A stretch of DNA of 64,000 bases from an uncultured Planctomycetia bacterium. Lineage in GTDB: Bacteria; Omnitrophota; Gorgyraeia; 2-02-FULL-51-18. Position 1 is the first letter of the stretch. Each line of letters opens with the position of its first letter. The notes below the pieces were generated by a model, which did no database searches, was not told where the DNA came from, and saw nothing but the letters and a program-made list of their open reading frames with translations. The position numbers were made by a program, and so were the translations under genes. Where the stretch lies: contig CAYSKO010000006.1 in NCBI GenBank assembly GCA_964431835.1, forward strand, positions 59,457 to 123,456, given 5' to 3'. This document shows, piece after piece, positions 5,244-45,588 of this stretch.

Positions 5244-5281
5244 TGAAATGATCCTATCATTTATTGAAAGGATGTCAAAGA

Positions 5282-5337
5282 GTTTCCACGTGGAAACACG
5301 GTTTAAGCGTATTTAAGCAGTTTCCACGTGGAAACTG
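5282..5337. promoter_or_regulatory. parS: Two parS-like centromere palindromes (GTTTCCACGTGGAAAC at 5282-5297; CAGTTTCCACGTGGAAACTG at 5318-5337)
   Basis: Perfect 16-bp and 20-bp palindromes immediately upstream of parA; they differ from the Firmicute parS core GTTTCACGTGAAAC only by symmetric C/G insertions. Confidence 0.6.
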
Positions 5338-7174: not shown

Positions 7175-8815
7175 TTATTTGGCGGCGGGGGAGAGTTGGA
7201 GGTTCTTGATTTTGAGCTGATAAGCCGTCATAAGGACGGTGTTCGTGAGCCAGTAAAGAACGAGTCCCGAGGGCATTCCGTAAAAAATGAATCCGAAGAG
7301 GACGGGCATCGTGTACGCCATCATCTTCTGCTGCGCGACCATCGCGGGGTCCTGGCCTTCGATCGTGGTCTGCGTGAATTTCTGCTGAACAAACATGGCG
7401 ACCGCCATGATGAGCGGAAGGACGTGCAGTTCGTTTCCGACGAGCGGGAGCGAGAAGGGCAGCGGCACGCGGTCGGGAGAGGAGAGGTCGCGAATCCAAA
7501 GGAACCCGGCGTTCACGAGAACCACCGATTTCGAGAGCGCGACATACAGTGCGATGAACACCGGCATCTGCGCGATCATCGGCAGGCAACCGCCGAACGG
7601 GTTCACCTTGTGCTTTTTGTAGAGCTCCATCATCTCGCGGTTCAGCTTTTCCGGATTTTTTTTGTGCTGCTCCCTCAGTTTATTCATCTGCGGCTGGATG
7701 AGCTGCATGCGCTTCATCGAGAGATAGCTCGCGCGCGTGAACGGGAAGAGGAGGAGGTTGATGAGGATCGTGAGCGCGATGATCGCAAGGCCCCAGTTGC
7801 GGAAAATCTTCTGAAGAAGCTCGAGACCGCCGACGAGGAGCTTCGCGATGCCGTCGAGCTTTCCGAAATTCACGATCGGGTCGAGCGCGTCGGGCAGCGT
7901 GGCCAGATCATTCGGACCCGCGTAAAATTCGAACGAATGCTCGAGCGTGCCGCCGGCCGGCACGGAAACCGTGGGAGAAACGAGCGCGCCCGAGAAACGG
8001 TCTTTTCCGAGACCCGCGATCAAACCCGTGAACGCGCCTTCCGAGACGGGGCGCAGGATGATCGAGAACTGCCGGTCCTTCACGGCGAGCCATTCCACGG
8101 GGCCGCGACTCTCGAGCGTCTTCCCGGCCTTGTTTTCTTTCACGTGACGAAGGTCGCTCTTTTTACCGTCGCGCTTTTCGTAGAAGTTCGCCTCGATGTA
8201 CTGGCCGTCGATGGAATTGCGCTGGGGGAAGCTTTCGCCGGCCGAGAGGCGGTAACGCATCGGAAGCGGCGCGCCTGTAGTATTCCGGAAACGAAGGACG
8301 AGCGAGCCCGCGTACGAACCGCGCGGAAGCGTGAAAATTTTCTCGATCTCGACGGGGCCGGCCTGTGCGACCGCGCGCACGCCGTCCTCCGTGGTCTCGA
8401 GCGTGTAATCCGCCGCGGTGCCGGGCACGCCCGCCGCGTCAACGCGGACGGTGAGGGGCGCGGTGCCTGCGCCGGTGAGGTCGAAGAGCCGCAGCGGTTT
8501 TTTCGTTTCAGGATCGGCAAAACGCTGAAACGCGACTTGGCGCACGGCCGCGTCTTTCGGATTGAACGCGAGACTCACCGAGCCGTTGTCGACGACAACG
8601 TCGTTCACGGCGGTGAAAGATGTGGGCGTTTCCGGCGAACCAGCCGAAACCGGGAGCTCCACCGCGGGCGCACCGGCCGCGGAAACCGCGGGGGCCGCGA
8701 CGGAAGCCCGCGACGCGGTCTTGACGGGCTTCGGAATCATGGTTTCGACAAAGACCTGGTACAGGCCGATTGTGAGGAAGCAGAGGATGAGGGCCAGAAC
8801 GGTGCGCTTTTCCAT
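7175..8815 (-). CDS. yidC: Membrane protein insertase YidC
   Basis: 546 aa; large periplasmic domain plus conserved C-terminal TM core (PMIAQMPVFIALY..., GLVLYWLTNTVLMTAYQ). Confidence 0.9.
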   Translation of the reverse strand: MEKRTVLALILCFLTIGLYQVFVETMIPKPVKTASRASVAAPAVSAAGAPAVELPVSAGSPETPTSFTAVNDVVVDNGSVSLAFNPKDAAVRQVAFQRFADPETKKPLRLFDLTGAGTAPLTVRVDAAGVPGTAADYTLETTEDGVRAVAQAGPVEIEKIFTLPRGSYAGSLVLRFRNTTGAPLPMRYRLSAGESFPQRNSIDGQYIEANFYEKRDGKKSDLRHVKENKAGKTLESRGPVEWLAVKDRQFSIILRPVSEGAFTGLIAGLGKDRFSGALVSPTVSVPAGGTLEHSFEFYAGPNDLATLPDALDPIVNFGKLDGIAKLLVGGLELLQKIFRNWGLAIIALTILINLLLFPFTRASYLSMKRMQLIQPQMNKLREQHKKNPEKLNREMMELYKKHKVNPFGGCLPMIAQMPVFIALYVALSKSVVLVNAGFLWIRDLSSPDRVPLPFSLPLVGNELHVLPLIMAVAMFVQQKFTQTTIEGQDPAMVAQQKMMAYTMPVLFGFIFYGMPSGLVLYWLTNTVLMTAYQLKIKNLQLSPAAK

Positions 8816-8816
8816 C

Positions 8817-9047
8817 TTAAGCCGCCTTTCCGGCGGGAATGGGATCCCAGCCGCCGGCCGAGAACGGGTGGCAACGTCCGACCCGGGCGGCGGTCAGCGC
8901 CGAGGCGCGGAAGAAACCGTAGGAACCGAACGCTTCCGCCGCGTACCGCGAGCAGGAAGGGTGGAAACGGCAGGCGCGGGGCGCGAGATACCGGAAGAAA
9001 CTGGCCACGAGACGGATACAGACGACCGCAAGACGATTCAGGATCAA
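8817..9047 (-). CDS. yidD: Membrane protein insertion efficiency factor YidD
   Basis: 76 aa; CRFHPSCSRYAAEAFGSYG...HPFSAGGWDP signature. Confidence 0.8.
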   Translation of the reverse strand: MILNRLAVVCIRLVASFFRYLAPRACRFHPSCSRYAAEAFGSYGFFRASALTAARVGRCHPFSAGGWDPIPAGKAA

Positions 9048-9340
9048 AGGGTTTTCCTTCTTTTATTGTCAGCGCGCACGAGTGCGTTTTTCAGCTCGGA
9101 CTTCGCGCTTTCCAAAGACGGCTCCGCCGGAGACGCCGTCACGCGGAAACGGAACACGTGTCCCGTCGGAGCCTCGAGGCCGCGTATCGCCTCGCGCAAG
9201 ACCCGGCGGATACGGTTCCGCTTCGTCGCCAATCGCACCGTTTTTTTGGGGATGGAGATCAAGGGACCGCGGCCGCCCGGTAATCCGGGCGTGTCCGCTC
9301 TTACGAGAGTGACCGCGAGCCAGATCGGCTCTTCGGGCAT
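9044..9340 (-). CDS. rnpA: RNase P protein component
   Basis: 98 aa basic protein in the conserved rpmH-rnpA-yidD-yidC order; KRNRIRRVLREAIR motif. Confidence 0.85.
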   Translation of the reverse strand: MPEEPIWLAVTLVRADTPGLPGGRGPLISIPKKTVRLATKRNRIRRVLREAIRGLEAPTGHVFRFRVTASPAEPSLESAKSELKNALVRADNKRRKTL

Positions 9341-9344
9341 CCGG

Positions 9345-9482
9345 TCAGACGGTCAGCTTCCAGCGGCCCTTTTGACGACGCTTCCTGAGAACGGCGCGAC
9401 CGTCCTTGGACTGCATCTTCTTCCGGAATCCGTGGGTTCTTTTCCGTTTAATATTCGATTTATTGGTAAGGGTTTTTTTCAT
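9345..9482 (-). CDS. rpmH: 50S ribosomal protein L34
   Basis: Translated by hand: [45 protein letters not shown] (45 aa, below the ORF-track cutoff). Confidence 0.9.
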
Positions 9483-9772
9483 GGTATCCCGTTATTAGAA
9501 TCCGAGGATTATAACACAGGCGCGGTTCGAGTCAAGGACGAGGGAAATACTTGTTGCGCTTTGCCTAGGACGGTTGCTATAATTTCTTGAAATTTTTAAG
9601 AAGTTCGTTAAGACGTCACAAATAATAGCCTGTGGATAACTTGTTGATAATTTCCATAGGGCCGTGGTAAAAGCTGTGAACATCGTTTTATTAGTTAAGT
9701 TATTTAATTTCAATAGGTTAGAATATCAATATAAAACTTCTGAAGTGTTTTCCCCAGGCTACCTGTGGATAA
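9483..9772. promoter_or_regulatory. oriC: Candidate oriC / dnaA promoter region: AT-rich, DnaA boxes TGTGGATAA (9631-9639, 9764-9772) and TGTTGATAA (9642-9650), promoter TTGCGC-N18-TATAAT (9554..9583), AT-rich unwinding-element candidate 9675-9745
   Basis: Perfect TTATCCACA-complement boxes seen directly; the strand-orientation switch of flanking genes occurs here. Confidence 0.6.
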
Positions 9773-11153
9773 CCTGACGCATAGAGACGCGGAAACGCTC
9801 TGGGCGCAGGTTGTTTCCTCCCTCGCCAAGGAACTCTCTCCTCACGTTTGCGACCGTTGGCTTCGCCCCATCAAGCCTCTCGAGATCGCCGACGACACTC
9901 TTTTTTTAAGCGTCCCGGACGAATTCTATAAATCCTGGATCGTCGACCATTACGGCGGAATGATGAACGCGGCTTTAAAGGAAGCGGCCGACGCCGGCGC
10001 GTCGCGCTTCGACTTCCGGGTCGACGCCGATTCATCGTTCGCGGTCCCGGTCTCGGCCGCGCCCGGTCTTCCGACACCTTCACCGGTTCCCGCCGGCCCG
10101 AACACCCCGGCGCTTCAGCCGATCTTCGCCGGCGAAGTGATGCTGAACGGGAAGTACACGTTCGAGAACTTCGTCGTGGGCCCCTCGAACCGTTTCGCGC
10201 ACGCGGCTTCCATGGCGGTCGCCGAAAGCCCGGCTAAAGCGTACAACCCGCTTTTCATCTACGGCCCGGTCGGCCTGGGCAAGACCCATCTCATGCAGGC
10301 GATCGGCCAGGAGACGATGCGGAAGTCGTTTCAGACCCGCGTTCTTTATATTACGAGCGAGAAGTTCACGAACCAGCTCATCAACGCGATCAAGACCGGC
10401 ACCACCGTCAAGTTCCGCGAGAAGTATAGGAACGTCGACGTGCTTCTCATCGACGACATCCATTTCATCGCCGGCAAAGAGGCGACGATGGAGGAATTCT
10501 TTCACACGTTCAACGCGCTCTACGATTCGCACAAGCAGATCGTGGTTTCGAGCGACAAGCCCCCGAAGGAAATCAACAACCTCGAGGAGAGACTAATCTC
10601 GCGCTTCGAGTGGGGACTCGTCACGGACATCCAGGCGCCCGACTACGAGACGCGCGCGGCAATTCTCCGGAAAAAAGCGGAAAAAGAGAACCTCTACGTT
10701 CCCGATTCCGTCACGTCGTTCATCGCCGACCGCGTGAAGTCGAATATCCGCGAGCTCGAAGGCGCGTTGATACGTGTGGTCGCCTATTCCAAACTCGTGG
10801 GGAAGGAAATCGACGAGGCGGTCGCGTACGACGTCTTAAAGGACATGATCGTCGAGACGCAGAAAAAAATCACGGTCGATCTCATTCAGCGGCGGGTCGC
10901 GGAATATTTCGAGGTCCGGCCTTCGGACATGACCGCTAAGCGCCGCTCCCGGAACGTCGTTTTTCCAAGGCATTTGGCGATGTATCTTTCGCGCGAGATG
11001 ACCGGGCTTTCCTACCCTGAAATCGGCGAACAATTCGGCGGTCGGGACCACACGACCGTGCTCCATGCGTGCGAGAAAGTAAGGAAGGAAATTAAGAAGG
11101 ATCAGAAGTCTAAATCGCTTGTGGATAAACTCATGACTGAAATTCGCAAATGA
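9765..11153 (+). CDS. dnaA: Chromosomal replication initiator DnaA
   Basis: 462 aa; Walker A GPVGLGKTHL, AAA+ and C-terminal DNA-binding domain. GTG start at 9765 lies inside a DnaA box, so the start is uncertain (CTG 9774 is the alternative). Confidence 0.9.
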   Translation: MDNLTHRDAETLWAQVVSSLAKELSPHVCDRWLRPIKPLEIADDTLFLSVPDEFYKSWIVDHYGGMMNAALKEAADAGASRFDFRVDADSSFAVPVSAAPGLPTPSPVPAGPNTPALQPIFAGEVMLNGKYTFENFVVGPSNRFAHAASMAVAESPAKAYNPLFIYGPVGLGKTHLMQAIGQETMRKSFQTRVLYITSEKFTNQLINAIKTGTTVKFREKYRNVDVLLIDDIHFIAGKEATMEEFFHTFNALYDSHKQIVVSSDKPPKEINNLEERLISRFEWGLVTDIQAPDYETRAAILRKKAEKENLYVPDSVTSFIADRVKSNIRELEGALIRVVAYSKLVGKEIDEAVAYDVLKDMIVETQKKITVDLIQRRVAEYFEVRPSDMTAKRRSRNVVFPRHLAMYLSREMTGLSYPEIGEQFGGRDHTTVLHACEKVRKEIKKDQKSKSLVDKLMTEIRK

Positions 11154-11313
11154 TTCAGACTGTGGATAAGAAAGAGTTTGTCCACAACTTACGGGTCCAT
11201 TTAAACTAGGAAACTGCAGGGGTTATGGACTTAACCCCGGAACTCGAGCGCCTAGTACTAACACTGGTTATGGAAATCTATAAATCAAAATCGAAATAAG
11301 GCGGAGTGGATAA
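11120..11313. promoter_or_regulatory. dnaA-dnaN intergenic DnaA-box cluster: TGTGGATAA 11120-11128 and 11161-11169, TTGTCCACA 11178-11186, AGTGGATAA 11305-11313
   Basis: Seen directly; the last box abuts the dnaN start. Confidence 0.5.
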
Positions 11314-11314
11314 C

Positions 11315-12420
11315 ATGAAAATCGTTACGTCGAAGGACGCATTACTCAAGGGAATCCAAGCGGTGCAGAACGCGGTTAGCACCAAGGCGACCCTTCCGAT
11401 TCTTTCCCACGTCCTTTTGGACGCGAAGAAGGACGCGGTGCGTCTTGTGGCCACCGATCTTGAGATTGGTGTGTCCGTGACGATTGAAGGCGAAGTGGCT
11501 GAAGAAGGAGCGATTACGCTACCGGCAAGAAAGTTCAGCGAAATAGTGAAAGAGCTGCCGTCGCAGTTGCCGATCCACATCGCGATGAAAAAAGCGCAGT
11601 CGGTGAGTATCGAATCCGGAAAAAGTTATTTCAAGTTAAACGGGCTTTCGAAAGAGGATTTCCCACAACTTCCAGAGTTTCCGACGAATTTGAAGGCGAT
11701 CGACGCGGCGAAGCTTCCGCAGAAATTACTAAAACACATGATTCAGCTCACAAGTTTCGCGATGAGTCATGATGAGACGCGTTACGTGTTAAACGGGATC
11801 CTGTTCTCGTTTAAGGAAAAGGCGCTCAAAATGGTGGCCACCGATGGACGCCGTCTTGCGATCATCGAAAAAGCGGTTCCGGAAATGGGACAGTTGCGGC
11901 GCGATGCGATCCTTCCGATGAAGACGATTCAGGAATTAAATAGGAACCTATCGGACACGGGTGATGTGATTTTCTCGTTCAAGGAAAACCAGCTCCAAGT
12001 GAATCTCGGCGCGATCACGATTAGCTCGAGACTCATTGAAGGCGAATATCCGAATTACGAACAGGTTATTCCGAAGAAAACAAAAGAAGAACTGAAAATC
12101 GGAACGCAGGAATTCCTGCAAGCCACGCGCCGCGCGAGTATCCTCACGAACCAGGATTCGCAGTCGATTAAGATTAATATCATCAAAGATAAGATGATTT
12201 TGACCAAGAACACGCCAGAGCTCGGCGAAGTGCGCGAGGAACTCGATGTTGATTATAAAGGTGGGGAACTCGCGATCGGGTTTAACCCCGCGTTCCTCAT
12301 TGATGTTCTCAAAAATCTCGAGGACCCCGACGTGCGTTTCGGATTCATCGATCCCGAGAAACCCGCGGTTATTAAGAGCGGCGAGGATTACATGTACATC
12401 GTCCTCCCGATGCAAGTGGC

Positions 12421-12424
<4 letters not shown>
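11315..12424 (+). CDS. dnaN: DNA polymerase III beta sliding clamp
   Basis: MKIVTSKDALLKGIQAVQNAV with SD AAGGCGGA 10 nt upstream; the track GTG start at 11306 is inside a DnaA-box-like site. Confidence 0.9.
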
Positions 12425-15293
<2,869 letters not shown>

Positions 15294-15309
15294 AGGGTAG
15301 AGAAGAAAA

Positions 15310-17877
15310 ATGGCGGACAAGACCGACAACCAGTACACGCGGAACGAGAAGGTCATCCCGGTTTTCATCGAAAAAGAGATGAAGACCGCGTACCTGAACT
15401 ACGCGATGAGCGTTATCGTCGGCCGCGCGCTGCCCGACGTCCGCGACGGTTTGAAGCCGGTCCACCGCCGTATTCTCTACGCCATGAAGGGCCTCGGCCT
15501 CGATCACAACAAGCCCTACAAGAAATCCGCCAAGATCGTTGGTGAAGTGCTCGGTAAATTCCATCCGCACGGCGACTCCGCCGTTTACGATTCGCTCGTT
15601 CGCATGGTTCAGGATTTCTCGCTGCGCTATCCGCTCGTCGACGGCCAGGGCAACTTCGGCTCGGTCGACGGCGACTCGCCGGCGTCCATGCGTTACACGG
15701 AAGCGCGCCTGGCCGGAATCTCGAACGAGATGCTCCGCGATATCGACAAGGACACCGTCAACTTCGCGCCGAACTACGACGAGTCCGAAGAAGAACCGAC
15801 GCTCCTGCCGTCCGTGCTCCCGGGCCTTCTCTGCAACGGCTCGGCCGGCATTGCGGTCGGCATGGCCACCAACATTCCCCCGCATAATCTAAACGAAGTT
15901 TCCGACGGCATCATCGCGGCGATCGAGAACCCCGAGATCACGCCGAAGGAACTCATGAAATACATCAAGGGTCCCGATTTCCCGACGGGCGCCACGATCT
16001 GCGGCGTCGAAGGCATCAAGTCGGCGTACGAGACGGGCCGCGGCATCCTCAAGATCCGCGCGAAAGCGGCGGTCGAGGAATCGCGCAACGGCCGCCAGGC
16101 GATCGCGATCTCGGAGATCCCGTACCAGGTCAACAAATCGAACATGATTCAGACCATCGCCGATCTCGTGAACGACAAGAAGATCGAAGGCATCTCGGAC
16201 GTCCGAGATGAGTCCGACCGCGAAGGCATGCGTATCGTGATCGAGCTGAAACGCGACGTGAACGCGCAAGTCGTGATGAACCAGCTCTACAAGCACACGC
16301 AGATGCAGACCACTTTCGGCATCATTTTCCTGGCCCTCGTCGACGGCAGCCCGCGGGTTCTGAATCTTAAACAGATCATCGAAGAGTACATCAAGCACCG
16401 CAAGGAAGTGATCCTCCGCCGCACGCGGTTTGATCTCGACAAGGCCCGCGACCGCGCGCACATCGTCGAGGGACTGAAGAAGGCCGTCGACATCCTCGAT
16501 AAGATTATCAAGACCATCCGCGCCTCGAAGAACCCGGCGGAAGCCAAAGCCCAGCTCATCGAGAAGTTCGAGTTTTCGGACCGTCAGGCGCAGGCGATCC
16601 TCGAGATGCAGCTCCAGAAGCTTACCGGCCTTGAGATCCACAAGCTCGAGGAGGAGTTCAAGGAGCTCATGAAGAAGATCGACTTCCTCGAGTCGATCCT
16701 GAAGTCCGAGAAGAAGGTCCTCGAGATCATCAAGGAAGAGCTCGCGAAACTGAAAGCAGACTACGGCGACGAGCGCCGCACCGACATTTCGCGCTCGATG
16801 GACACCGAGCTCAACATCGAAGACCTGATCGCGGACGAGGCGGTCGTCATTACGATTTCGCACCAGGGCTACGTGAAGCGCCTCCCGGTCGGCACGTACC
16901 GCAAGCAGAAGCGCGGCGGCGTGGGCGTAGGCTCCGGCGGCCAGGAAGAGGACTTCACCCAGCAGCTCTTCGTCGCGTCGACGCACGACAACCTGCTTCT
17001 TTTCACGACCAAGGGCAAGGCGTTCGTCATCAAGGTGTACGACATCCCCCAGGCGTCGCGCATCTCGAAGGGCAAGTTTATCGCCAATTTCGTCTCGCTT
17101 TCGCAGGGCGAGAAGGTCACGTCCTACATGCCCGTGAAGAAGTTCGACGAGGGCATCTTCGTCGTCATGGTCACGAAGAACGGCACGATCAAGAAGTGCC
17201 AGCTGACCGATTTCGAGAACGTCCGAAAGAGCGGCATCATCGCGATCGGGCTCGATCCCAAGGACGAGCTCGTCGAGGCCGACCTCACGAACGGCAAGCA
17301 GCAGATCCTCATCGCCACCCGCGAAGGCCAGTGCATCCGCTTCGACGAGGACGACGTGCGCTCGATGGGACGCGCCGCCAGCGGCGTGCGCGGAATCACG
17401 CTCGACGGTAAAGATTACGTGATCGGCATGGAAGTGGTAGACTCGAAGGACGCCACGATCCTGTCCGTCACCGAGAAGGGCTTCGGAAAGCGCTCGATGG
17501 TCGACGAGTACCGGGTCACCGGACGCGGCGGCAAGGGCGTCACGAATATCAAGGTTACCGAGAAGAACGGCGAGGTCGTGGGCTTCAAACTTGTCACCGA
17601 CCACGACGACGTCATGATCATGACCAAAGAAGGCATGGTCGTGCGGTGCTCGGTGAAGGACATCCGCGAAACGGGCCGCGTGGCGCAGGGCGTCCGGGTC
17701 ATCAATTTGAAGAAGGACAACGACAAGGTCGTCGCCGTCGCCGAGGTCGAGCCCGAAGACGAGGCGATGGCGCAAGAGAAGCTGACCGAGGCCGAGAAGG
17801 CCGCAGCGATCGTGGAAGCCGAAGCCGAAAAGGCCGAGAAATCCGCGAAAGCCGACAAAAAGAAGTCGGACAAGTAA
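15310..17877 (+). CDS. gyrA: DNA gyrase subunit A
   Basis: 855 aa; [19 protein letters not shown], active-site region AMRYTEARL, GyrA-box beta-pinwheel repeats, acidic/lysine tail. Confidence 0.95.
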
Positions 17878-22350: not shown

Positions 22351-22386
22351 AGCGCCCGAGGGGCCAAACCCCCCGGCGCTTTTTTC
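22351..22386 (+). terminator. Rho-independent terminator after hppA
   Basis: AGCGCCCGAGGGGCCAAACCCCCCGGCGCT followed by TTTTTT. Confidence 0.6.
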
Positions 22387-29518: not shown

Positions 29519-29534
29519 GCTCGTTCTCTCCGAA

Positions 29535-29573
29535 AAACCAAAGCAGGCCCCCTGGCCCGCTTTGGTTTTTTTA
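29535..29573 (+). terminator. Rho-independent terminator AAACCAAAGC-aggccccctggcc-GCTTTGGTTT plus T-run
   Basis: 10-bp stem followed by TTTTTT. Confidence 0.7.
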
Positions 29574-30819: not shown

Positions 30820-30866
30820 GCGGCGGGGCTTCTGGCCCAGCCTTTTTTTTGTTACAATGGCTCCCG

Positions 30867-32720: not shown

Positions 32721-34838
32721 ATGAAAGCGGCGGCAACGATCCTCTTTGCCGCCGCTTTTTCTTTTTCCGCCCATGCCGCTCCGGTGCGCGACGCCCACAC
32801 GGAGGTGGAGCTTGTCTCGTCTTCCGCATCGGCGTCGCCCGGAGCCGAGATCCGCGTGGCTGTGCATCTGCGTCCCGATCCGCGCTGGCACGTGTACTGG
32901 AAGAATCCGGGCGATTCCGGGCTTCCGCCGACGATCGATTGGCGCCTGCCCGAAGGCGCGACGATGGGTCCGGTCGAGTGGCCTTATCCCAGAAAGCTCA
33001 TCGTCAGCAACATCGTGAATTACGCATTCGAGGAGGATATTCTCCTCGTGGTTCCGGTTCGCGTGCCCGCCTCCGCGAAACCGGGCGCGACGCTCGAAAT
33101 CGGCGCTTCCGTGAGCTGGCTCGCCTGTGAAGTGGAATGCGTGCCGGGCAAAGCCGAACTCTCGCTCGCCCTCCCCGTAAAAGAAGGGACGCCCGAACCT
33201 GACCTCCGGTGGACGCCGGTGTTCGCCGCCGCGCGCTCAAAGCTTCCGATCGCCGGAGCCCCCTGGAGAGTGCGGGCGGCCTACGACGCTTCGCGCTACC
33301 GGCTCACGTTCACCCCCGAGGCGGGCGTGCCGGCGGAGCTTTCCGAAGCGTACTTTTTCCCTGACGACAACGAGCTCGTCGATCACGCCGAGCCGCAGAG
33401 CTTCGCCCGCGCCGGCGATTCCTGGACGCTCGACATGCCGCGCTCCTCGGTGACCGACCGCATTCCCTCGAAGCTCGAAGGCGTGCTTTTCTCTGAAACC
33501 GGATGGCGTGGCCCGGGCTCCGAAAAGGCGCTCGCGGTGAGCGTGCCGCTCGAAAAAACGACGTCCGCCGCCGCGCCCCCGGCTCCCGTTTCTCCGCTGG
33601 GGCTCTGGTCCGCCCTTCTTTTCGCGTTCGTGGGCGGTCTCATTCTGAACCTTATGCCCTGCGTTCTTCCGGTCCTCTCCCTCAAGATCTTCGCTTTCAT
33701 GAAGGAAGCGAGCGAGAACCCGCGAGCGCTTTTTGCCCACGGTCTGGCGTTCACCGCCGGCGTCGTGACGACCTTCTGGACGCTCGCGGGCGTGCTTTTG
33801 GCGATCAAGGCGGCGGGGCAGAAGGTAGGCTGGGGATTTCAGCTGCAGTCGCCGCAGTTCGTCATCGTCCTCGCGTTCGTTTTCTTCCTCTTCACGTTGA
33901 ATCTTTTCGGAACGTTTGAGATCGGCACGTCGCTGACGGGCGCCGGCGGCTCCCTGACGCGCCGCCGTGGCTTGGGCGGCGCATTCGCCAGCGGTGCATT
34001 CGCGACGGTGGTCGCCACACCCTGCACGGCTCCGTTCATGGGCACCGCGCTCGGCTTCACGCTCTCCCAGCCTCCGGTCGCTTCGTTCGCGGTGTTCACC
34101 GCGCTCGCCCTCGGCATGGCCGCGCCGTATCTGCTTCTCTGCTCCCAGCCCGCGCTTCTCAAATACGTGCCCAAACCCGGCGCCTGGATGGAAACGTTGA
34201 AGCAGGCGCTCGGATTTCCGCTCGCGGCCACGGTTATCTGGCTCGCGTGGGTGCTGGGTCTCCAGCGGGGCCTCGACGCTTCGATCGCGCTCGCCGCGGG
34301 TCTTCTCGTTTCCACGGTGGGCGCGTGGGCGTACGGACGCTGGGGGACCCCGATCGCTCCGGCCGCTCGCCGTCGTTTCGTGACCGCCGTGTTTATTCTC
34401 TCGATCGCCGGCGGCGTGGCGATCGCCTGGAAACTCCTGCCTTCCGAAGCACCTGCGGCCACGGGAGCCGGCGCTTCCGCGCACGGCATCTCCTGGGAGC
34501 CGTATTCGGACGAGCGCCTCGAGGCGCTGCTCACCGAAGGACGACCCGTTTTTCTCGATTTCACCGCCGCATGGTGCCTCACCTGCAAGGTGAACGAGCG
34601 GGTCGCGCTCGAGGTGCCCGCGGTCCAAAAGAAGTTCAAGGATTACGGCGTCGCGGCGCTAAAGGGCGATTGGACCAACCAGGACGAGGGCATCGCCCGC
34701 GCGCTCGCGCGTTACGGGCGCAACAGCGTCCCGCTCTACGTGCTGTACGTCCCCGGCGAGGCCGAACCGAGGGTCCTGCCGGAGATCCTGACTCCTTCGA
34801 TCGTGCTCGAGGCCCTCGACGCTCTCAAAAAGAAATGA
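32721..34838 (+). CDS. dsbD: Thiol:disulfide interchange protein DsbD
   Basis: Start at MKAAATILF (signal peptide); N-terminal periplasmic domain, central TM block, C-terminal thioredoxin WCLTC. The track ORF start at 32409 overlaps dps and is rejected. Confidence 0.85.
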   Translation: MKAAATILFAAAFSFSAHAAPVRDAHTEVELVSSSASASPGAEIRVAVHLRPDPRWHVYWKNPGDSGLPPTIDWRLPEGATMGPVEWPYPRKLIVSNIVNYAFEEDILLVVPVRVPASAKPGATLEIGASVSWLACEVECVPGKAELSLALPVKEGTPEPDLRWTPVFAAARSKLPIAGAPWRVRAAYDASRYRLTFTPEAGVPAELSEAYFFPDDNELVDHAEPQSFARAGDSWTLDMPRSSVTDRIPSKLEGVLFSETGWRGPGSEKALAVSVPLEKTTSAAAPPAPVSPLGLWSALLFAFVGGLILNLMPCVLPVLSLKIFAFMKEASENPRALFAHGLAFTAGVVTTFWTLAGVLLAIKAAGQKVGWGFQLQSPQFVIVLAFVFFLFTLNLFGTFEIGTSLTGAGGSLTRRRGLGGAFASGAFATVVATPCTAPFMGTALGFTLSQPPVASFAVFTALALGMAAPYLLLCSQPALLKYVPKPGAWMETLKQALGFPLAATVIWLAWVLGLQRGLDASIALAAGLLVSTVGAWAYGRWGTPIAPAARRRFVTAVFILSIAGGVAIAWKLLPSEAPAATGAGASAHGISWEPYSDERLEALLTEGRPVFLDFTAAWCLTCKVNERVALEVPAVQKKFKDYGVAALKGDWTNQDEGIARALARYGRNSVPLYVLYVPGEAEPRVLPEILTPSIVLEALDALKKK

Positions 34839-35495: not shown

Positions 35496-35502
35496 TTAAA
35501 AA

Positions 35503-35550
35503 ACCGCCGGCCGGCCGCCTTTTTTTCAGAGGGCGTCCGGCCGTTTTTTT
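35503..35550. terminator. Tandem GC-rich hairpins with T-runs (bidirectional terminator) after the redoxin gene
   Basis: AAAAAACCGCCGGCCGGCCGCCTTTTTTT and GGGCGTCCGGCCGTTTTTTT. Confidence 0.55.
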
Positions 35551-35600: not shown

Positions 35601-37424
35601 ATGACCCCAACGACTCCCGAACTCACCGCGGCGCTCAAGCGCTTCTTCGGCTACGAGACGTTCCGGCCGCTCCAGCGCGAAATCATCGAAGATTCGCTGA
35701 TGGGGCGGGACACGCTCGCGATCCTTCCGACGGGAGCCGGCAAATCCCTCTGCTATCAACTTCAGGCGATGCTCCGGCCGGGCCTCACCGTCGTCGTGTC
35801 GCCGCTCATCGCGCTCATGAAAGACCAGGTGGACGCGATGGAGGCGGCCGGCATTCCCGCGACTTGCCTCAATTCGTCGCTCGAGGCCGACGACGCCCGC
35901 GAGCGCCTGCGTGGAATCGAAGAAGGTGGCATCAAGCTTCTGTACGCGGCACCCGAGCGCATCATGCTTCCTGGGTTCCTCGATTCGCTCCGGCGATGGA
36001 ACGTTTCACTGGTGGCTGTCGACGAAGCGCACTGCATCAGCGAGTGGGGACACGATTTCCGGCCCGAATACCGGCGCCTCGCCGAACTGCGCGATCTTTT
36101 GCCGGGCGTGCCGTTTCTGGCACTCACCGCCACCGCGACCGAGCGTGTACGCGAGGACATCGTGCGCCAGCTGCGGTTTTCGGGCGCGTCCGTCCATCTG
36201 GCGAGCTTCAACCGCCCTAATCTTACCTACCGCGTCGTCGCCAAGCATAAGCCTTACGACCAGCTCATCGAGTACGTCTCGAAAAACCCGTCCGAGAGCG
36301 GAATCGTCTACTGCCATAGCAGGAAAACCGTCGAAAGCGTCGCAGAGCGGTTGAACGAGGACGGCGTGCGCGCCGTTCCGTACCACGCGGGGCTCGACGC
36401 GGCCGTGCGCGACCGCAATCAGGAAAAGTTCCTCCGCGACGACGCGCGCGTGGTGACGGCCACAATCGCATTCGGCATGGGCATCCACAAGTCGAACGTG
36501 CGGTTCGTCGCGCACTACGACCTCCCGAAGAATGTGGAAGGCTACTATCAGGAAACAGGCCGTGCGGGCCGCGACGGCCTGCCCGCCGACTGCCTCCTCC
36601 TTTTCGGCGCGGGCGACGTCGTGAAGCACGCCCAGTTCATCGACGAAAAAGGGGACCTGCGCGAGCGTGAGGTGGCTCGCCGCCAGCTTCAGCAGGTCGT
36701 CCATTACGCCGAAAGCTCGACGTGCCGCCGCGTCGAGCTTTTGCGCTATTTCGGGGAGACGTACGACCGCGTTCCCTGCGGGGCCTGCGACAACTGCCTT
36801 ACGCCCAAAGAGACCTTCGACGGCACCGTCTCGGCTCAGAAGCTTCTGTCCTGCGTTGTCCGCATCCGCGAAAAAAACGGTTTTGGGGTGGGTCTAGCGC
36901 ACGTCACCGAGGTGCTGACGGGCGCCGACACGGAAAAGATCCGCAAGTGGGGCCACGAGGGGCTTTCCACGTACGGTATCGGCAAGGAACACACTCGCCC
37001 GGAGTGGTCCTCGATCGGCCGGGAACTCGTCCGGATGGGTTTTTTGCGGCAGACCGAGGGCAAATTTAGCGTCCTCGAACTCACCGAAGCGGGCCGCGTC
37101 GCTTTGAAAGAAAGACGGTCGATCACGCTCTCACGGCCCGTAGGGAAGCCCGCCGCGGCGCCCCGGCCCGCGCGCCGAGGGGAAATCGTCTGCGACGAAG
37201 CGCTCTTCGAAAAGCTGCGGCGCCTGCGGAAACGCCTGGCCGACGAGAAAAACGTGCCCGCCTACATCGTTTTCTCGGACGCCTCGCTCCGCATCATGGC
37301 GCGCGACCTGCCCGGTGACGAGATGGAGTTTGCCCGCATTGGCGGGGTGGGCGCAAAGAAATTGGAAGAGTTCGGCGGCGCGTTTCTCGCGGAAATCGCC
37401 GAATACCGGAACGGCGTCCGGTGA
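35601..37424 (+). CDS. recQ: ATP-dependent DNA helicase RecQ
   Basis: FGYETFRPLQREII, LPTGAGKSLCYQ, DEAH box VDEAHCISEWGHDFR, zinc-binding and HRDC regions; ATG at 35601 with SD AAAGG preferred over the track TTG at 35577. Confidence 0.9.
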   Translation: MTPTTPELTAALKRFFGYETFRPLQREIIEDSLMGRDTLAILPTGAGKSLCYQLQAMLRPGLTVVVSPLIALMKDQVDAMEAAGIPATCLNSSLEADDARERLRGIEEGGIKLLYAAPERIMLPGFLDSLRRWNVSLVAVDEAHCISEWGHDFRPEYRRLAELRDLLPGVPFLALTATATERVREDIVRQLRFSGASVHLASFNRPNLTYRVVAKHKPYDQLIEYVSKNPSESGIVYCHSRKTVESVAERLNEDGVRAVPYHAGLDAAVRDRNQEKFLRDDARVVTATIAFGMGIHKSNVRFVAHYDLPKNVEGYYQETGRAGRDGLPADCLLLFGAGDVVKHAQFIDEKGDLREREVARRQLQQVVHYAESSTCRRVELLRYFGETYDRVPCGACDNCLTPKETFDGTVSAQKLLSCVVRIREKNGFGVGLAHVTEVLTGADTEKIRKWGHEGLSTYGIGKEHTRPEWSSIGRELVRMGFLRQTEGKFSVLELTEAGRVALKERRSITLSRPVGKPAAAPRPARRGEIVCDEALFEKLRRLRKRLADEKNVPAYIVFSDASLRIMARDLPGDEMEFARIGGVGAKKLEEFGGAFLAEIAEYRNGVR

Positions 37425-40668: not shown

Positions 40669-41055
40669 ATGACCCGTCAAAACGTCTCGACAGGCGGCAA
40701 GTGGGAACCCCTCATCGGCTACTCGCGTGCGGTGAAGGCGGGAGAATACGTCCACGTTTCGGGCACGACCGCCTCCGGTCCCGACGGACTCGTGGGAAAA
40801 GGGGACGTCCATGCGCAGACCGTTCAGACGTTGAAAAACATCGAAGCCGCGCTCGAGAAGGCCGGCGCGAAGCTCTCAGACGTCGTCCGGACGCGGATTT
40901 TCATGACGGACATTTCCGAATGGGAGAAGTGCGGCAGGGCACACGGGGAATTCTTCGGCACGATCCGTCCGGCCACGACGATGGTCCAAGTCGCGAAGCT
41001 GATCGATTCCGAAATGCTAGTTGAAATCGAAGCAGACGCTTACGTCGGTCGCTGA
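40669..41055 (+). CDS. ridA: RidA/YjgF-family reactive-intermediate deaminase
   Basis: 128 aa; [13 protein letters not shown]...RTRIFMTDI...TMVQVAKL. Confidence 0.85.
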
Positions 41056-41239
41056 AACGGTTTTACTAACAAAATTGTATTAATAAGTCTATTAAAGACT
41101 ATCATTCATTATTAGCCTCTGTGCGTATTTGATAACCTATTGAAAAGACTGACATTGCAAGGTAGTCTTCTTATAGACGCAAGTTGAGGCCGATTCTTTT
41201 AAGCTCTAATTGAAGACTTTAAAAAAGGCGGAAAGTAAG

Positions 41240-42790
41240 ATGAAGAAGCTGCTCCCCGCAATCCTGACGGCGATCGTGACGATTCAGTCCGTGCCTCAGG
41301 TCGCCTTCGCCGAAGAGGCTTCATTTAATCAGCAGCCCTTCGGGACCATGCCTTTCACCGCCTCCGAAAGCCGGGAAGCCGCCCAGCGCGGCCACGTCGC
41401 GAGCCTGAATGCGCTCGCGGACTTAGAGGCGCTGAACCGCGCCGCCATCGCAGCCCCCAGCGCGTCGCCTTTCACCGCGATGGCCTCGACCGGCACGGAC
41501 GGCCGGCCGGATTTCGCGGTCACGGTCGACGCCAAAGGCGTCCTCCGCGCCGCCTATAAAAACCGTACGCTCACCGGAAAATATGATTTCGTCTCGGGCC
41601 GCGCGGTTCTGAAGAGCGCCGATTCTCTCGAAACGTGGACGATCTCGATTCGCGACGAGGCCGGAGTCCGCACGGTCGCCTCGTTCCGCACGGAACAAGG
41701 CGGCGTGTCGGTCGACAGGAAATTCGACCGCAGCGGGCTTCTTGCCGCCCGCACGGGAGCGACGCGTTTCTCCGACGGCAGCGTTTCCGAGACCGCCGAC
41801 ACGTTCGCCTACGCGCGTATCGGCGGCCGTCCGATCGTGAACGCGACGACGAGTCTCTGGCGGTTCACGGACTCCGACGGCCGCATCCTGCAGGAAGCCG
41901 AAACCCGCGCGTCCACGCGGTACGGCACCGACGGCGCTGCGGAAAGCTCGGTTTCGCTTCAGCGGATCGTGGAGAACGGACAAGACTTTTACGGCGCTGC
42001 CGCTTTCGAATGGACCGACTCCCCCTCGGGCCAGGTTCGGACCAGCGCCTCGCTTTACGGTCTCGAGGAGAATCTCTTCCGGACCATCGGTGCGGCCGAC
42101 GCAGACGCGGTAATCTCGCGGGCGATCGTCGTGACGGAAGCGCATTACGGCGCCGGCCGTCTTCGTTTCCTCGCCGACCGCGAGCGCGACGCCGCGGGCG
42201 TACTGCGCGACAAGAGGACCATCCTTCCCGATGGCACGATCCGGATCGTCGTGGGCGAGGCGGATCCGCGCGACGGCGGCTCGGACGATCTCGTCTTCCG
42301 TCAGACTTCCGTCGGCGGCTGGTCGACCTTCTTCGGCGACAATTACGAAGCCGCCAACGGTTTCTGCTGCACGATTTACGAGGGCTACGGCCTCGCCTTC
42401 ACGAAGTACGTCGGCGGCGTTCCAGGAGAAGAGCGCAAAGTGCAGGTGGTCGTTGATTACCCGCGAGTGAAGACGGTCGAGCTGGAAGGCGTGACTTACC
42501 GCATCGACCTGGCCGGCGGCGAGGTTCGTCTGACCGAGGAAAAAATCGCTGCCGCAGCCGAGGCGCCCGCAGCCGTCGAAGAAATCGTGATCCACTCGTC
42601 TCTGCCGGCCGTCGAAAAGCGCGCTGCCGAGCCTTTCCGGATCCGTCCCGCCGAACACTTCGTGCCGTCTTTCACCTCTCCCGTGCCGCCCCAGGCTCTT
42701 CGCCGCGCCCCCTCCGACTTAAAGGCCCGCACGCGCAATGCTTCCGGCCGGCGCGACGACGAGGATTTCTTCGGAGCCGCCGAAGTTTAA
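41240..42790 (+). CDS. Secreted hypothetical protein (~517 aa)
   Basis: Start at MKKLLPAILTAIVTIQSVPQVAFA with SD AAGGCGGA; no recognisable domain. Confidence 0.5.
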   Translation: MKKLLPAILTAIVTIQSVPQVAFAEEASFNQQPFGTMPFTASESREAAQRGHVASLNALADLEALNRAAIAAPSASPFTAMASTGTDGRPDFAVTVDAKGVLRAAYKNRTLTGKYDFVSGRAVLKSADSLETWTISIRDEAGVRTVASFRTEQGGVSVDRKFDRSGLLAARTGATRFSDGSVSETADTFAYARIGGRPIVNATTSLWRFTDSDGRILQEAETRASTRYGTDGAAESSVSLQRIVENGQDFYGAAAFEWTDSPSGQVRTSASLYGLEENLFRTIGAADADAVISRAIVVTEAHYGAGRLRFLADRERDAAGVLRDKRTILPDGTIRIVVGEADPRDGGSDDLVFRQTSVGGWSTFFGDNYEAANGFCCTIYEGYGLAFTKYVGGVPGEERKVQVVVDYPRVKTVELEGVTYRIDLAGGEVRLTEEKIAAAAEAPAAVEEIVIHSSLPAVEKRAAEPFRIRPAEHFVPSFTSPVPPQALRRAPSDLKARTRNASGRRDDEDFFGAAEV

Positions 42791-42839
42791 GCCCGCTTGA
42801 CCGCCCGCCTCGTTCTGAGTTAGGCTAAATCTACCCCTC

Positions 42840-43073
42840 GTGCGATCGTTTTATTGGAAAGGATCTTTAGGTTTCATGTCTCAGGCGGTTTCTCCCCCCA
42901 AGCTCGGCCGCGAACGGACGGCCGTCACCGGTTTTCCCAATGAGCGCGCCGTGGCCCCGACGGCCTTCGCTGACGGCCGCTACAAATCCGATTACGTCCA
43001 CCCCAACGCAGAAGGTTACCGGAAGATCGCCGAACGCGTCCGCGAATTCCTCGACCGAAAAGGAGCTCTTTGA
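42840..43073 (+). pseudogene. C-terminal remnant of an SGNH/GDSL hydrolase
   Basis: 77-aa ORF ending ...FADGRYKSDYVHPNAEGYRKIAERVREFL (block V DxxHPN of SGNH hydrolases); no GDSL N-terminal block upstream. Confidence 0.4.
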
Positions 43074-43537
43074 AACCCCCGCGCAAGACGGCTTTCCCGA
43101 TCGTCAACGTTTACGAACGCTACGGGAAGATCGTCGTCGTCCCGACTTCCCAAACGCTCGCCGGTTTCTACGTCGACAAGGATCCCGCGAAGCTCTTGAA
43201 AGCCGACTGGAACGAGATCGGGGAGGCGGTGCTCGCGGCGCGTAAACGGTTCGAAGCTGGAGTGCCGGTGCCGGTGTGGACGAAAAAAAGCACGCACCCC
43301 GCGCGCGAGGCGTTCGGTGCGCGCTCCGAAGCCGAATTCCTGAACTACTGCCGGCTCTGCTCGGTGGAATTTACGCCCGAGAAAATTCATGCGATTCCGT
43401 ACCAGAACCGCGGCGCAGACGAGGGTTTCGTGCCCGCCGAAGCCGTCGCGTGCGAAGCCTTCGGCCCCGACGCCGCGGCCGTCGGCGACGCGGTCCGTCG
43501 TGCGCTGTCTCTTAGCGGTAAAGGAAAAGCCTCCTGA
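43070..43537 (+). CDS. Hypothetical protein, 155 aa
   Basis: TTG start with SD AAAAGGAG 5 nt upstream; no known domain. Confidence 0.4.
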   Translation: MKPPRKTAFPIVNVYERYGKIVVVPTSQTLAGFYVDKDPAKLLKADWNEIGEAVLAARKRFEAGVPVPVWTKKSTHPAREAFGARSEAEFLNYCRLCSVEFTPEKIHAIPYQNRGADEGFVPAEAVACEAFGPDAAAVGDAVRRALSLSGKGKAS

Positions 43538-43542
43538 AAAAA

Positions 43543-43766
43543 GAACCGGCCTAAAGACGAAATCCTGCCTCATGCCGTCGGCTTTAAATCCCCGAAAATT
43601 TCGACGGCAAACGGCAGGATTTCGTCTTTAGGCCGGTTCCTTCGTCCCGCATAAGACGAAACCCGAAAGAAAAGTGCGCAAAAAAAGAATCCGCCGTTGC
43701 CGTCGAAATTTTCGGGGATTTAAAGCCGACGGCGCAAGGCGGAGTCTTTTTTTGCGCACTTTCTCC
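43543..43766. repeat. Nested inverted-repeat element: 27-bp perfect IR (43543-43569 / 43613-43639) enclosing a palindromic 37-nt unit (43574-43610); an exact reverse-complement copy of that unit (43697-43733) enclosed by an ~18-20 bp second IR (43665-43688 / 43745-43766)
   Basis: All arms checked base-by-base in the sequence. Confidence 0.6.
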
Positions 43767-43893
43767 GATTCCCCTTGATTTTCATGAGGGAATTTAGTAC
43801 AATAACGTCACTTCAGATCGGAGTCCTTCCGGTCTACTCGTTCCAAGATCCTCCGTTAAGCTTGCTCCGAACATTCACGTTTAGGGGGTGCAC

Positions 43894-44376
43894 ATGCTCA
43901 ACAGACGACGGATATTTCACGTCCTCTTCTTCAGCGCGTTTACTTTGTTCTGCGTCGACGCGTCCGCCAAAGAATACTGGAACGGCAGCGAATGCGTCGC
44001 GTGTCCCGACGGCGCGTTCACCTCGTTCGATCCTCTCAAAAACAGCAGCCCCACGCGTGACTCATCGGGCGGCGGCGGCTCCCGGCCTCTTCCTTCCGCC
44101 GGCCCGACCGATTTCACTCTCAACGGTTCCGCCCGGCTCCCGGACGAATTCGTCCTCGTGCCTCAGGAATCGAGCGTGATGTATTTCGTCGTGGGTCCGG
44201 TCAAGCACGTCGACGCCAAGCAACACCTCGTCGTCGTGGAAAACCGCAGCACGCGTAAGAGGCAAAACATCTTTGTCTTCGACCCGATCATCCACTCCCT
44301 CCACGACCGCAACGTCGTCGAGGTGTGGCTTAAACCCGGCTCCAGCCGGGCGGAGAGGATCCACCGCCTCTCCTAA
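43894..44376 (+). CDS. Secreted cysteine-containing hypothetical protein
   Basis: Signal peptide MLNRRRIFHVLFFSAFTLFCVDASA; SD TAGGGGG. Confidence 0.45.
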   Translation: MLNRRRIFHVLFFSAFTLFCVDASAKEYWNGSECVACPDGAFTSFDPLKNSSPTRDSSGGGGSRPLPSAGPTDFTLNGSARLPDEFVLVPQESSVMYFVVGPVKHVDAKQHLVVVENRSTRKRQNIFVFDPIIHSLHDRNVVEVWLKPGSSRAERIHRLS

Positions 44377-44408
44377 CCGCTCTTCAAAACGTCCCCCCGT
44401 AGGAACCG

Positions 44409-44436
44409 CCCCGGGAGCCCTCCTCCCGGGGTTTTC
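44409..44436 (+). terminator. Rho-independent terminator CCCCGGGAG-ccctc-CTCCCGGGG plus TTTT
   Basis: 9-bp perfect stem followed by a U-tract. Confidence 0.6.
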
Positions 44437-44769
44437 ATTTATCCTCTCAGCCTCTTCTTACGCCCGGAATAATTGTTAAAGCTTAGATAATCGTCTCACT
44501 TATCATATGTTCTTATAATGGGTCAATAGACTCATTAATAGATATATTTATACTATATTCTGGGTTTAAATATAATTATTTCGAACTATATAGATTGTTA
44601 TCTCCACTTTCATTTATTCACAGGTTATTAGAAACTGTGGACAAGTGTAATATGGGCGCCACAAGCGGGATTCAGGGGTTCAAAAGGTATTTGACGAAGA
44701 TGGTCATGTATGATATCATTATGGCTCATTAAAGCTAAGCCTACCAGTCAGGTTTAAAGGGTGCATCCA

Positions 44770-45588
44770 ATGACAGATTCCCAGAAGTTCGACCATCTCG
44801 ATAAGCTCGAGAACCAGTCGATTTTCATCCTTCGCGAGGCCTATAAGAAGTTCAAGAAGCTAGCCATGCTTTGGTCCATCGGAAAGGACTCCAACGTCCT
44901 TCTATGGCTGGCACGGAAAGCCTTCTATGGGTATTGCCCGATCCCGCTCGTTCACATCGACACTTCCTATAAGATCCCCGAAATGATCGAGTTCCGCGAC
45001 CGCTACGCCAAAGAGTGGAACCTGAATCTCATCGTCGGGCAGAACAAGCAGGCGCTCGCCGACGGAATGAACTTCACGCAGGGGCGCATTACGTGCTGCA
45101 CGGCTTTGAAGACCACGGGCCTTCAGCAGATCATGGAACAGTACGATTACAAGGGTCTCATCCTCGGCATTCGCCGGGACGAGGAATCCACACGCGCCAA
45201 GGAGCGTTACTTTTCGCCCCGCGATAAGAACTTCGAGTGGGATTTCAAGGACCAGCCGCCGGAGCTTTGGGATCAGTTTAAGACCAACTTCGACGAGAAC
45301 ACGCACATCCGCATCCATCCGCTTCTCCACTGGACGGAGGTGAACGTCTGGGAATACATCCAGCGTGAACAGATTCCGGTCGTGTCGCTTTATTTCTCGA
45401 AGAACGGCAAGCGCTACCGGAGCCTGGGGTGCGCGCCTTGCACGGCCACGATTGATTCGCAGGCTTCTTCGATCCCCGAGATCATCACCGAGCTCAAGGC
45501 CACGAAAACCTCTGAGCGTGCCGGGCGCGCCCAGGACCAGGAAGACACCTACGCGATGCAGCGCCTCCGCGCCAAAGGATACATGTGA
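44770..45588 (+). CDS. cysD: Sulfate adenylyltransferase subunit 2
   Basis: [19 protein letters not shown]-loop; ATG at 44770 with SD AAAGGG. Confidence 0.9.

Follow-up and report, generated by a model that had tools for sequence, protein, structure and literature searches.

Hairpin-forming elements between bacterial genes

The described systems closest to the locus examined here are the bidirectional intrinsic (Rho-independent) terminators, in which a GC-rich stem with an A-tract and a T-tract yields a hairpin followed by a U-run on both strands; tandem and 'I-shaped' hairpin terminators are classes defined in WebGeSTer. Comparable structures are found among mobile and repeated elements. Bacterial MITEs (Correia/CREE, ERIC/IRU, RUP and BOX) are 100-230 bp in size, carry long inverted repeats that fold into a stable hairpin, occupy intergenic sites and can be present or absent between close strains. 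REP doublets, namely the BIMEs of E. coli and the REPINs of Pseudomonas, which are mobilised by RAYT transposases, consist of a close inverted pair of imperfect palindromes of about 37 nt, lie between co-directional genes, in the spacer that follows the first of them, and can form large hairpins; BIMEs attenuate transcription and stabilise the upstream mRNA. Integron attC sites are imperfect palindromes of 60-140 bp, located behind short orphan ORFs and folding in single-stranded form. Finally, palindromes stimulate deletion between short direct repeats by replication slippage, as in the 'precise excision' of Tn10 and Tn5.

Two large DNA hairpins with likenesses to these systems lie side by side between same-strand genes in the window, i.e. 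the whole 64-kb stretch of DNA that was analysed; its source is an uncultured, Omnitrophota-like bacterium. They form an odd-looking yet essentially ordinary feature, most likely a transcription stop signal. We put at about 55% the probability that the element is a locally evolved compound palindrome which provides a termination/insulation zone after the p526-p65-p155 unit and upstream of the p160 promoter.

Architecture of the two hairpins

The first hairpin, H1 (43543-43639), consists of a perfect 27-bp outer stem (43543-43569/43613-43639), 3-nt bulges on each side and a core hairpin at the apex. This stem had already been proposed in an earlier note on the same DNA and was borne out both by an inverted-repeat search and by folding; taken alone, H1 folds as RNA at -68.4 kcal/mol (z -12.8) on the + strand and at -74.3 kcal/mol on the - strand. 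An A6 tract (43537-43542, + strand) abuts the 5' side of H1 and corresponds to a T6 tail after the hairpin on the minus strand, the only strand with a T-run; on the + strand the tail is CCTTCGTCCC, with no U-tail. A small linker hairpin, TTCGTC/GACGAA (43642-43660), is located between H1 and the second hairpin.

The second hairpin, H2 (43671-43762), has a 25-nt stem with 96% complementarity and one A.G mismatch. The earlier note had recognized the hairpin but drawn its arms at 43665-43688/43745-43766, whereas the best pairing is 43671-43695/43738-43762. From the outside in, H2 is layered as AAAGTGCGC, A7, GAATCCGCC, a 42-nt loop with the core, GGCGGAGTC, T7 and GCGCACTTT: the outer stem AAAGTGCGC/GCGCACTTT is followed by A7 (43680-43686) paired to T7 (43747-43753) and then by the GC-rich inner stem GAATCCGCC/GGCGGAGTC (43687-43695/43738-43746), where the A.G mismatch is located. 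Of the A6 and T7 runs that had been assigned to the outer stems, A6 precedes H1 instead of being part of its stem, and T7 is found inside H2 together with A7. Pairing in H2 extends past the T-tract (GCGCAC/GTGCGC), and the RNA of this hairpin alone folds at -53.3 kcal/mol (z -6.5). The inner-stem sequences of the element are AAGACGAAATCCTGCC and GAATCCGCC, the latter being that of H2.

The folding of the element is far beyond chance. The top three short-range inverted repeats of the whole window are all at this locus, and when stems of at least 14 perfect bp with loops of at most 60 nt are considered, H1 and H2 are two of the three hairpins present in 64 kb. As RNA, a 246-nt region comprising the element reaches -128.7 kcal/mol (z -13.7) for the + strand and -137 kcal/mol (z -11.9) for the - strand; the DNA fold has a z of -14.0, and 0/200 shuffles folded equally well in these RNA/DNA foldings.

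Genomic context

The element occupies the gap between the stop codon of p155 (43537) and the promoter-like site of p160, both genes being on the + strand; it starts 6 nt past the p155 stop, and H2 begins 134 nt past it. The initial remark that no flanking gene explains the element was a fair one. The upstream neighbour had also been described as a gene remnant; p155 (43070-43537, + strand, TGA stop at 43535-43537) is instead a real gene, as indicated by its codon-position GC (0.65/0.49/0.76, typical of real genes in the window) and by its CdiI-family homologues. It has no Pfam match of its own, but 217 remote homologues were retrieved, and 11 of 31 of these match PF07262, the CdiI family of contact-dependent inhibition (CDI) immunity proteins; the homologue profile also matches the CdiI chains 4zqv and 4g6u in the PDB with E-values from 2e-9 to 5e-7. 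On the basis of this homology p155 is considered an orphan CDI-type immunity gene, distantly belonging to the CdiI family; no toxin gene is evident beside it. A gene remnant may be represented by the preceding 65-aa ORF (42877-43073), which overlaps the p155 start by 4 nt and whose DYVHPNAEGY motif resembles, and may correspond to, block V of the SGNH hydrolases.

On the other side of the element, p160 (43894-44376, + strand) is an orphan gene encoding a protein with a hydrophobic N-terminus; its codon-position GC profile is, like that of p155, the profile of real genes, and it is followed by its own canonical compact terminator (44408-44432). Its promoter-like site, TTGATT-17-TACAAT (43775-43803, + strand), is a consensus match only and lies 12 nt past the end of H2.

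These genes are part of a 3.7-kb island (41056-44760) placed between ridA and cysD, which contains a secreted 516-aa protein (p526/516), p65, p155, the element and p160. No homologue of the island proteins (p526/516, p65, p155 and p160) was found in related loci, and in a related Omnitrophota MAG (L027) ridA (9277-9657) is found about 350 nt upstream of cysD, which starts at 10001; judged from these comparisons, the island is lineage-specific. Its borders are AT-rich (GC 0.35-0.45 vs about 0.60) and have no flanking repeats; att sites were considered and rejected, no significant repeats linking the AT-rich borders at 41041-41245 and 44377-44775. From cysD onward the window is syntenic with MAGs of Candidatus Omnitrophota and 'Planctomycetia', where CysD is 88-91% identical; the loci retrieved from the MAGs with this level of CysD identity have a GC of 45-48%. 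In the window, the segment 44350-45400, which includes the region upstream of cysD and the 5' part of the gene, has a GC of 0.35-0.55 vs a genome average of 0.60, and it may have been transferred or be compositionally atypical. The window as a whole is core chromosome at the replication origin (yidC, dnaA, gyrB, gyrA and parAB), and neither transposases nor integrases were found among the window genes checked.

Evidence for transcription termination

A scan for hairpins with a T-run behind them picked out 43687-43746, which has T7 after it on either strand (-25.4 and -23.2 kcal/mol); these energies fall within the range of the clear terminators of the window. Compact terminators of the same design occur at several positions (A5/T5-flanked 29533-29570, 35498-35526, 32723-32759, 22352-22379, 30822-30842 and 44408-44432), and several of the clear ones, e.g. 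29533-29570 and 35498-35526, are bidirectional with A-/T-tract flanks. H2 matches this local grammar and resembles the bidirectional intrinsic terminators in having a GC-rich stem with an A-tract and a T-tract, so that a hairpin and a U-run are present on both the + and the - strand; H1 has the GC-rich stem-loop followed by a U-tract on the - strand only. As expected for intrinsic terminators, the element follows a stop codon where a transcription unit ends, with H2 preceding the next promoter-like site, and the succession of H1 and H2 recalls a tandem arrangement.

Termination at H2 is inferred from this anatomy. In the mechanism we propose, H2 would be the working part, where the inner stem (43687-43695/43738-43746) and the U7 would release + strand transcripts at about 43747-43753, while the mirror A7 would provide an equivalent signal for antisense transcripts. 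H1 would be, on the + strand, a very stable hairpin devoid of a U-tail, acting at most as a pause site or as a block to 3' exonucleases, and on the - strand a back-up terminator; overall it would represent a non-essential, genetically unstable accessory. A back-to-back pair of bidirectional terminators, as originally suggested, is the best supported of the three explanations that had been offered, and it applies to H2, with its A7 and T7 readable on both strands, but not to H1, whose T-run is found on the minus strand only.

Some features depart from those of intrinsic terminators. The H2 inner stem encloses 42 nt, which are structured and contain a further hairpin, and the H1 outer stem encloses 43 nt, vs loops of about 3-10 nt that are typical in the window; a standard terminator scan (loop 3-8) calls neither H1 nor H2. 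H2 also pairs outside its T-tract, and H1 has a perfect 27-bp stem without a U-tail on the coding strand; both exceed the needs of termination and point to a DNA-level process or to another function. Termination on the minus strand has no obvious client gene, because the neighbouring genes are all on the + strand. Lastly, both hairpins bear an identical 37-nt apex.

The shared core and the kinship of the hairpins

The apex sequence, GCCGTCGGCTTTAAATCCCCGAAAATTTCGACGGCAA, is composed of a GCCGTCG arm, an A/T-rich 21-nt loop and a CGACGGC arm. Copy 1 is found at 43574-43610 on the + strand and copy 2, its exact reverse complement, at 43697-43733 on the - strand, confirming the earlier observation of one 37-mer in both hairpins with opposite orientations. 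The self-complementarity ascribed to the 37-mer holds only weakly: alone, the core folds poorly (z -2.3 and -0.5), its 7-9 bp stem closing a loop of 19-21 nt. It occurs exactly twice in 64 kb, with no additional occurrence even when three mismatches are allowed, and never in shuffles. The two copies are 86 nt apart, with their centres separated by 123 bp, and could form a common duplex of 44 nt (93%).

The similarity between the hairpins is not restricted to the core. H1 can be aligned to the reverse complement of H2 through the adjoining stem segments, AAAGAC[GAAA]TCC[T]GCC ... GGC[A]GGA[TTTC]GTCTTT, by means of substitutions and paired indels after which each stem is still complementary; the outermost arms, GAACCGGCC and AAAGTGCGC, have no relation to each other. 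Since the alignment proceeds beyond the core with stem-preserving substitutions and indels, H1 and H2 look like old inverted paralogues, whose apex would have been kept identical or re-homogenised. The 37/37 identity of the core beside diverged stem segments is the one feature that the terminator model leaves unexplained. The element opens no long-standing question, and only this identity leaves room for something more specific: a sequence-specific module, either a low-copy REP-like unit of Omnitrophota, with its enzyme encoded elsewhere, or a protein-binding hairpin coupling termination of the CdiI-like operon to the control of the next gene. We regard such a module as very unlikely, but the contrast between the identical core and its diverged neighbours is the basis of two alternative explanations, one centred on recognition, discussed here, and the other on mobility, discussed below together with copy number.

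According to the first, the cores would bind a protein that regulates p160 or p155, as a paired DNA site, as a cruciform or as RNA, or would act in a long-range RNA switch. The conservation of 37/37 nt despite the divergence of the neighbouring stems would fit with such a role, as would the position of the core centres, 123 bp apart and directly upstream of a promoter-like site, and the possible mutual pairing of the cores. However, the long-range duplex is far less stable than the local hairpins, which would form first during transcription, and a sister strain tolerates the loss of one core (see below). The half-sites, moreover, would be 7-bp arms 21 nt apart, an unusual half-site spacing for dimeric regulators. 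A structured non-coding RNA was also among the explanations first put forward, but it received no support from Rfam: at E-values up to 10 only sub-threshold matches were obtained, the best being MIR9486 with 39 bits vs a gathering score of 100, and all of them were generic long-hairpin models of miRNA precursors. Homologues of the element in which covariation could be examined were not found in the collections searched, and 5.8 billion protein clusters contain no close homologue of p155 itself. Taken together, these points make a recognition site or RNA switch highly improbable, and a termination zone centred on H2 is still the preferred reading.

Strain polymorphism at the locus

The locus was recovered from several assemblies by exact-protein look-ups; those with p155, p160, ridA and cysD led only to a few samples, the same ones each time. 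Over 11.7 kb, a JGI contig (3300020596) does not differ from the window, and it has both cores. Conversely, a 9.6-kb contig from SRR6448207 (L001) spans the locus but lacks 43563-43661, a 99-bp segment that includes the first core and the H1 right arm, and thus keeps H2 only, which indicates that H1 is dispensable. The segment is delimited by two copies of a 9-nt direct repeat, AAGACGAAA, both on the + strand: the first (43554-43562) is within the left arm of H1 and marks the left bound, the second (43653-43661) is 14 nt beyond the right arm and marks the right bound. The strain represented by L001 is about 99.95% identical to that of the window, and over about 9.5 kb the other differences are four SNPs at 36881-37133 and one C-to-T substitution (43558), located 5 nt from the junction.

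The long form is probably the ancestral one, the polymorphism being due to a deletion and not to an insertion. Local templates are available for 66 nt of the 99 (37 nt of core from H2, 20 nt of the right outer arm and 9 nt of the direct repeat), and 33 nt have none; for this reason, a single templated event that would turn the short allele into the long one was rejected. Because only 66/99 nt have a local template, the passage from the short to the long form needs several steps, and a deletion only one. Moreover, 20 nt of the segment are exactly complementary to flanking sequence that the short allele retains, so that a simple transposon insertion is not possible.

The short allele is most simply explained by replication slippage between the 9-nt AAGACGAAA repeats bracketing most of H1, stimulated by the palindrome; the presence of a -68 kcal/mol hairpin between the repeats would favour a single slippage event. 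The loss of 99 bp with 9-nt direct repeats around a very stable hairpin, seen between near-identical strains, is what would be expected from a palindrome-stimulated deletion of the Tn10/Tn5 type. The case differs from those examples in that it is known as two alleles in metagenome assemblies, with its direction inferred, and in the linked SNP at 43558, which simple slippage leaves unexplained. If this interpretation is correct, the locus is a natural example of terminator-like palindromes that grow and shrink by DNA-level processes.

The same polymorphism could be seen as a sign that the element has no function at all, i.e. that the palindrome is a neutral by-product, generated by template switching, gene conversion or a local inverted duplication where the spacer of a lineage-specific gene island is under little constraint, any termination being incidental. 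The excess of pairing noted above, both in the perfect 27-bp stem and past the T-tract, agrees with this possibility, and so does the fact that the sister strain lost one hairpin without other change. The element also lies in a 3.7-kb island of orphan genes at a place where ridA and cysD are adjacent in L027, and it has no homologues in the collections searched. On the other hand, H2 fits the local terminator grammar on both strands, is the sole terminator-like signal between p155 and the p160 promoter and is retained in both alleles; furthermore, an identical 37-nt core beside diverged flanks suggests constraint or homogenisation, not free drift. A purely neutral origin is accordingly rather unlikely, and the reading of the element as a termination zone, with H2 as its retained part, is to be preferred.

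Copy number and comparison with mobile elements

A search of the GTDB species genomes with an exact 35-mer gave 0 matches. A 19-mer of the loop had 11 matches in the JGI metagenome contigs, all without the hairpin flanks and attributable to chance; this collection failed to return the JGI contig L015, which bears the element, and its silence therefore says little about the source genome. No match to the element was found in IMG/VR or, by blastn, in plasmids and phages. With H1, H2 and the core as queries, blastn-short and nhmmer produced chance matches only, whether in the remainder of the window, in 1.4 Mb of related loci or in 11 kb of additional flanking sequence; the sequence of the source genome searched for copies amounts to about 75 kb, corresponding to the window and the 11-kb flanks. 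The pattern GCCGTCG-N10-35-CGACGGC has one additional match, unrelated and inside a gene, at 27553.

Assembly graphs provided a further estimate of copy number. The Logan contigs of SRR6448209 and SRR6448212 break off at 43603 and resume at 43704, exactly 30 nt inside each core, the pattern expected of a 37-nt inverted repeat in a de Bruijn graph with k=31. In Logan all 31-mers are distinct within an accession (PMC12424806). L001, also a k=31 contig, is unbroken through its sole remaining core, so that no other exact copy of the core is present in the SRR6448207 sample; graph simplification can drop rare branches, and diverged copies are invisible to this test. For annotators of uncultured phyla such as Omnitrophota, the locus is a warning that long nested hairpins can be single-locus features and need not be mobile, and that short-k assemblies break exactly at inverted repeats of this kind. 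On the sequences surveyed, a high-copy family of identical units is excluded.

The explanation based on mobility holds that the element is a low-copy, lineage-specific unit of the REP/REPIN/BIME or MITE type, with a hairpin unit of about 37-75 nt, diverged copies elsewhere in the genome and a transposase, RAYT-like or of another kind, whose gene lies outside the window. The architecture is indeed that of a REP doublet, two inverted 37-nt imperfect palindromes 86 nt apart in the 3' spacer of co-directional genes. The border between the identical core and the diverged flanks is abrupt, each core tops a different outer stem, as if inserted in two unrelated hairpins, and presence or absence varies between strains; one locus per about 75 kb would still allow a few tens of copies per genome. 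REP families, however, comprise tens to hundreds of loci, whereas the element is found at a single locus in the searched sequence; no RAYT is present among the annotated genes of the window, and the core does not have a conserved 5' tetranucleotide of the GTAG type. Likewise, neither 75 kb of the genome nor the collections searched yielded a second locus, and the unbroken k=31 contig argues against other exact copies in the deletion strain. The element resembles BIME/REP doublets in layout, but their multi-copy hallmark is contradicted as far as exact copies are concerned.

The comparison with bacterial MITEs leads to a similar result, since the size, the long inverted repeats with a stable hairpin fold, the intergenic site and the presence/absence difference between close strains are shared, but target-site duplications are not. 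The 10-nt flanks of H1 (CCTGAAAAAA/CTTCGTCCCG) share no direct repeat, nor do those of H2 (ACCCGAAAGA/CTCCGATTCC), and no duplication is found at the ends of the whole element. The outer arms of H1 show no relation to those of H2, and the indel cuts an arm of H1, being bounded by internal direct repeats and not by the palindrome ends; the exact complementarity of 20 nt of the supposed insert to the flank is incompatible with simple transposition. The search of about 75 kb of the genome, of related loci and of public collections yielded no further copies, and neither a parent IS nor a transposase was found among the checked genes of the window. The MITE-like mobile remnant that had been suggested for this locus received no support from these comparisons, and a low-copy mobile unit of either type is considered quite unlikely; the interpretation as a locally evolved termination zone is again favoured.

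Other candidates were rejected. Integron attC sites share with the element the imperfect palindromes of 60-140 bp after short orphan ORFs and single-strand folding, but the R'' (RYYYAAC) and R' (GTTRRRY) boxes are absent from the ends of H1 and H2: those of H1 are GAACCGG... and ...CCGGTTCCTT, where GTTCCTT fails the RRR positions, and those of H2 are AAAGTGCGC and GCGCACTTT. In addition, the hairpins are adjacent, whereas each cassette would have a single one, the flanking genes come with a promoter-like site and with terminators of their own, and no integrase was seen among the checked window genes; identity with attC was rejected on account of the missing end boxes. The ends of IS200/IS605 elements and PATEs have hairpins that are direct-oriented on one strand, while those of the element are inverted; a Y1 transposase was not seen either. 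A CRISPR was discarded, two inverted copies being present rather than an array, and so was an invertible promoter switch between the inverted cores, as their 86-nt spacer contains no promoter-like site. The element, in conclusion, belongs to no testable known repeat or RNA family.

Additional features of the window and of related loci

The origin region of the window extends over 7175-17877 and includes yidC on the minus strand, dnaA (9765-11153), gyrB (12732-15293) and gyrA (15310-17877); 11306-12424 is predicted to be dnaN. Genes downstream of this region are nearly all on the + strand. Directly upstream of parA-parB (4362-5243 and 3523-4365, minus strand), the palindrome AGTTTCCACGTGGAAACT is found in two identical copies (5281-5297 and 5320-5336), 39 nt apart; it resembles the parS consensus GTTTCACGTGAAAC, but its central ACGT is flanked on either side by one additional base pair. 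CoaBC (288-1474, minus strand) is called in the Logan annotations as two overlapping separate genes, one for each half (a flavoprotein of 184 aa and a DFP protein of 211 aa), and the two-gene call reflects either a split arrangement or a frame shift.

A long intergenic hairpin was also observed in a related 'Planctomycetia'/Omnitrophota-like MAG (L022, CAZTBX010000011.1), at 3710-3830, between two same-strand genes. Its outer stem is GAAAAGCGAAAAGCGA..., it spans about 110 nt and it encloses a nested small hairpin, AGTCGCC-AAA-GGCGACT; it has no sequence similarity to the element described here, and its occurrence suggests that long nested intergenic hairpins recur in the clade.
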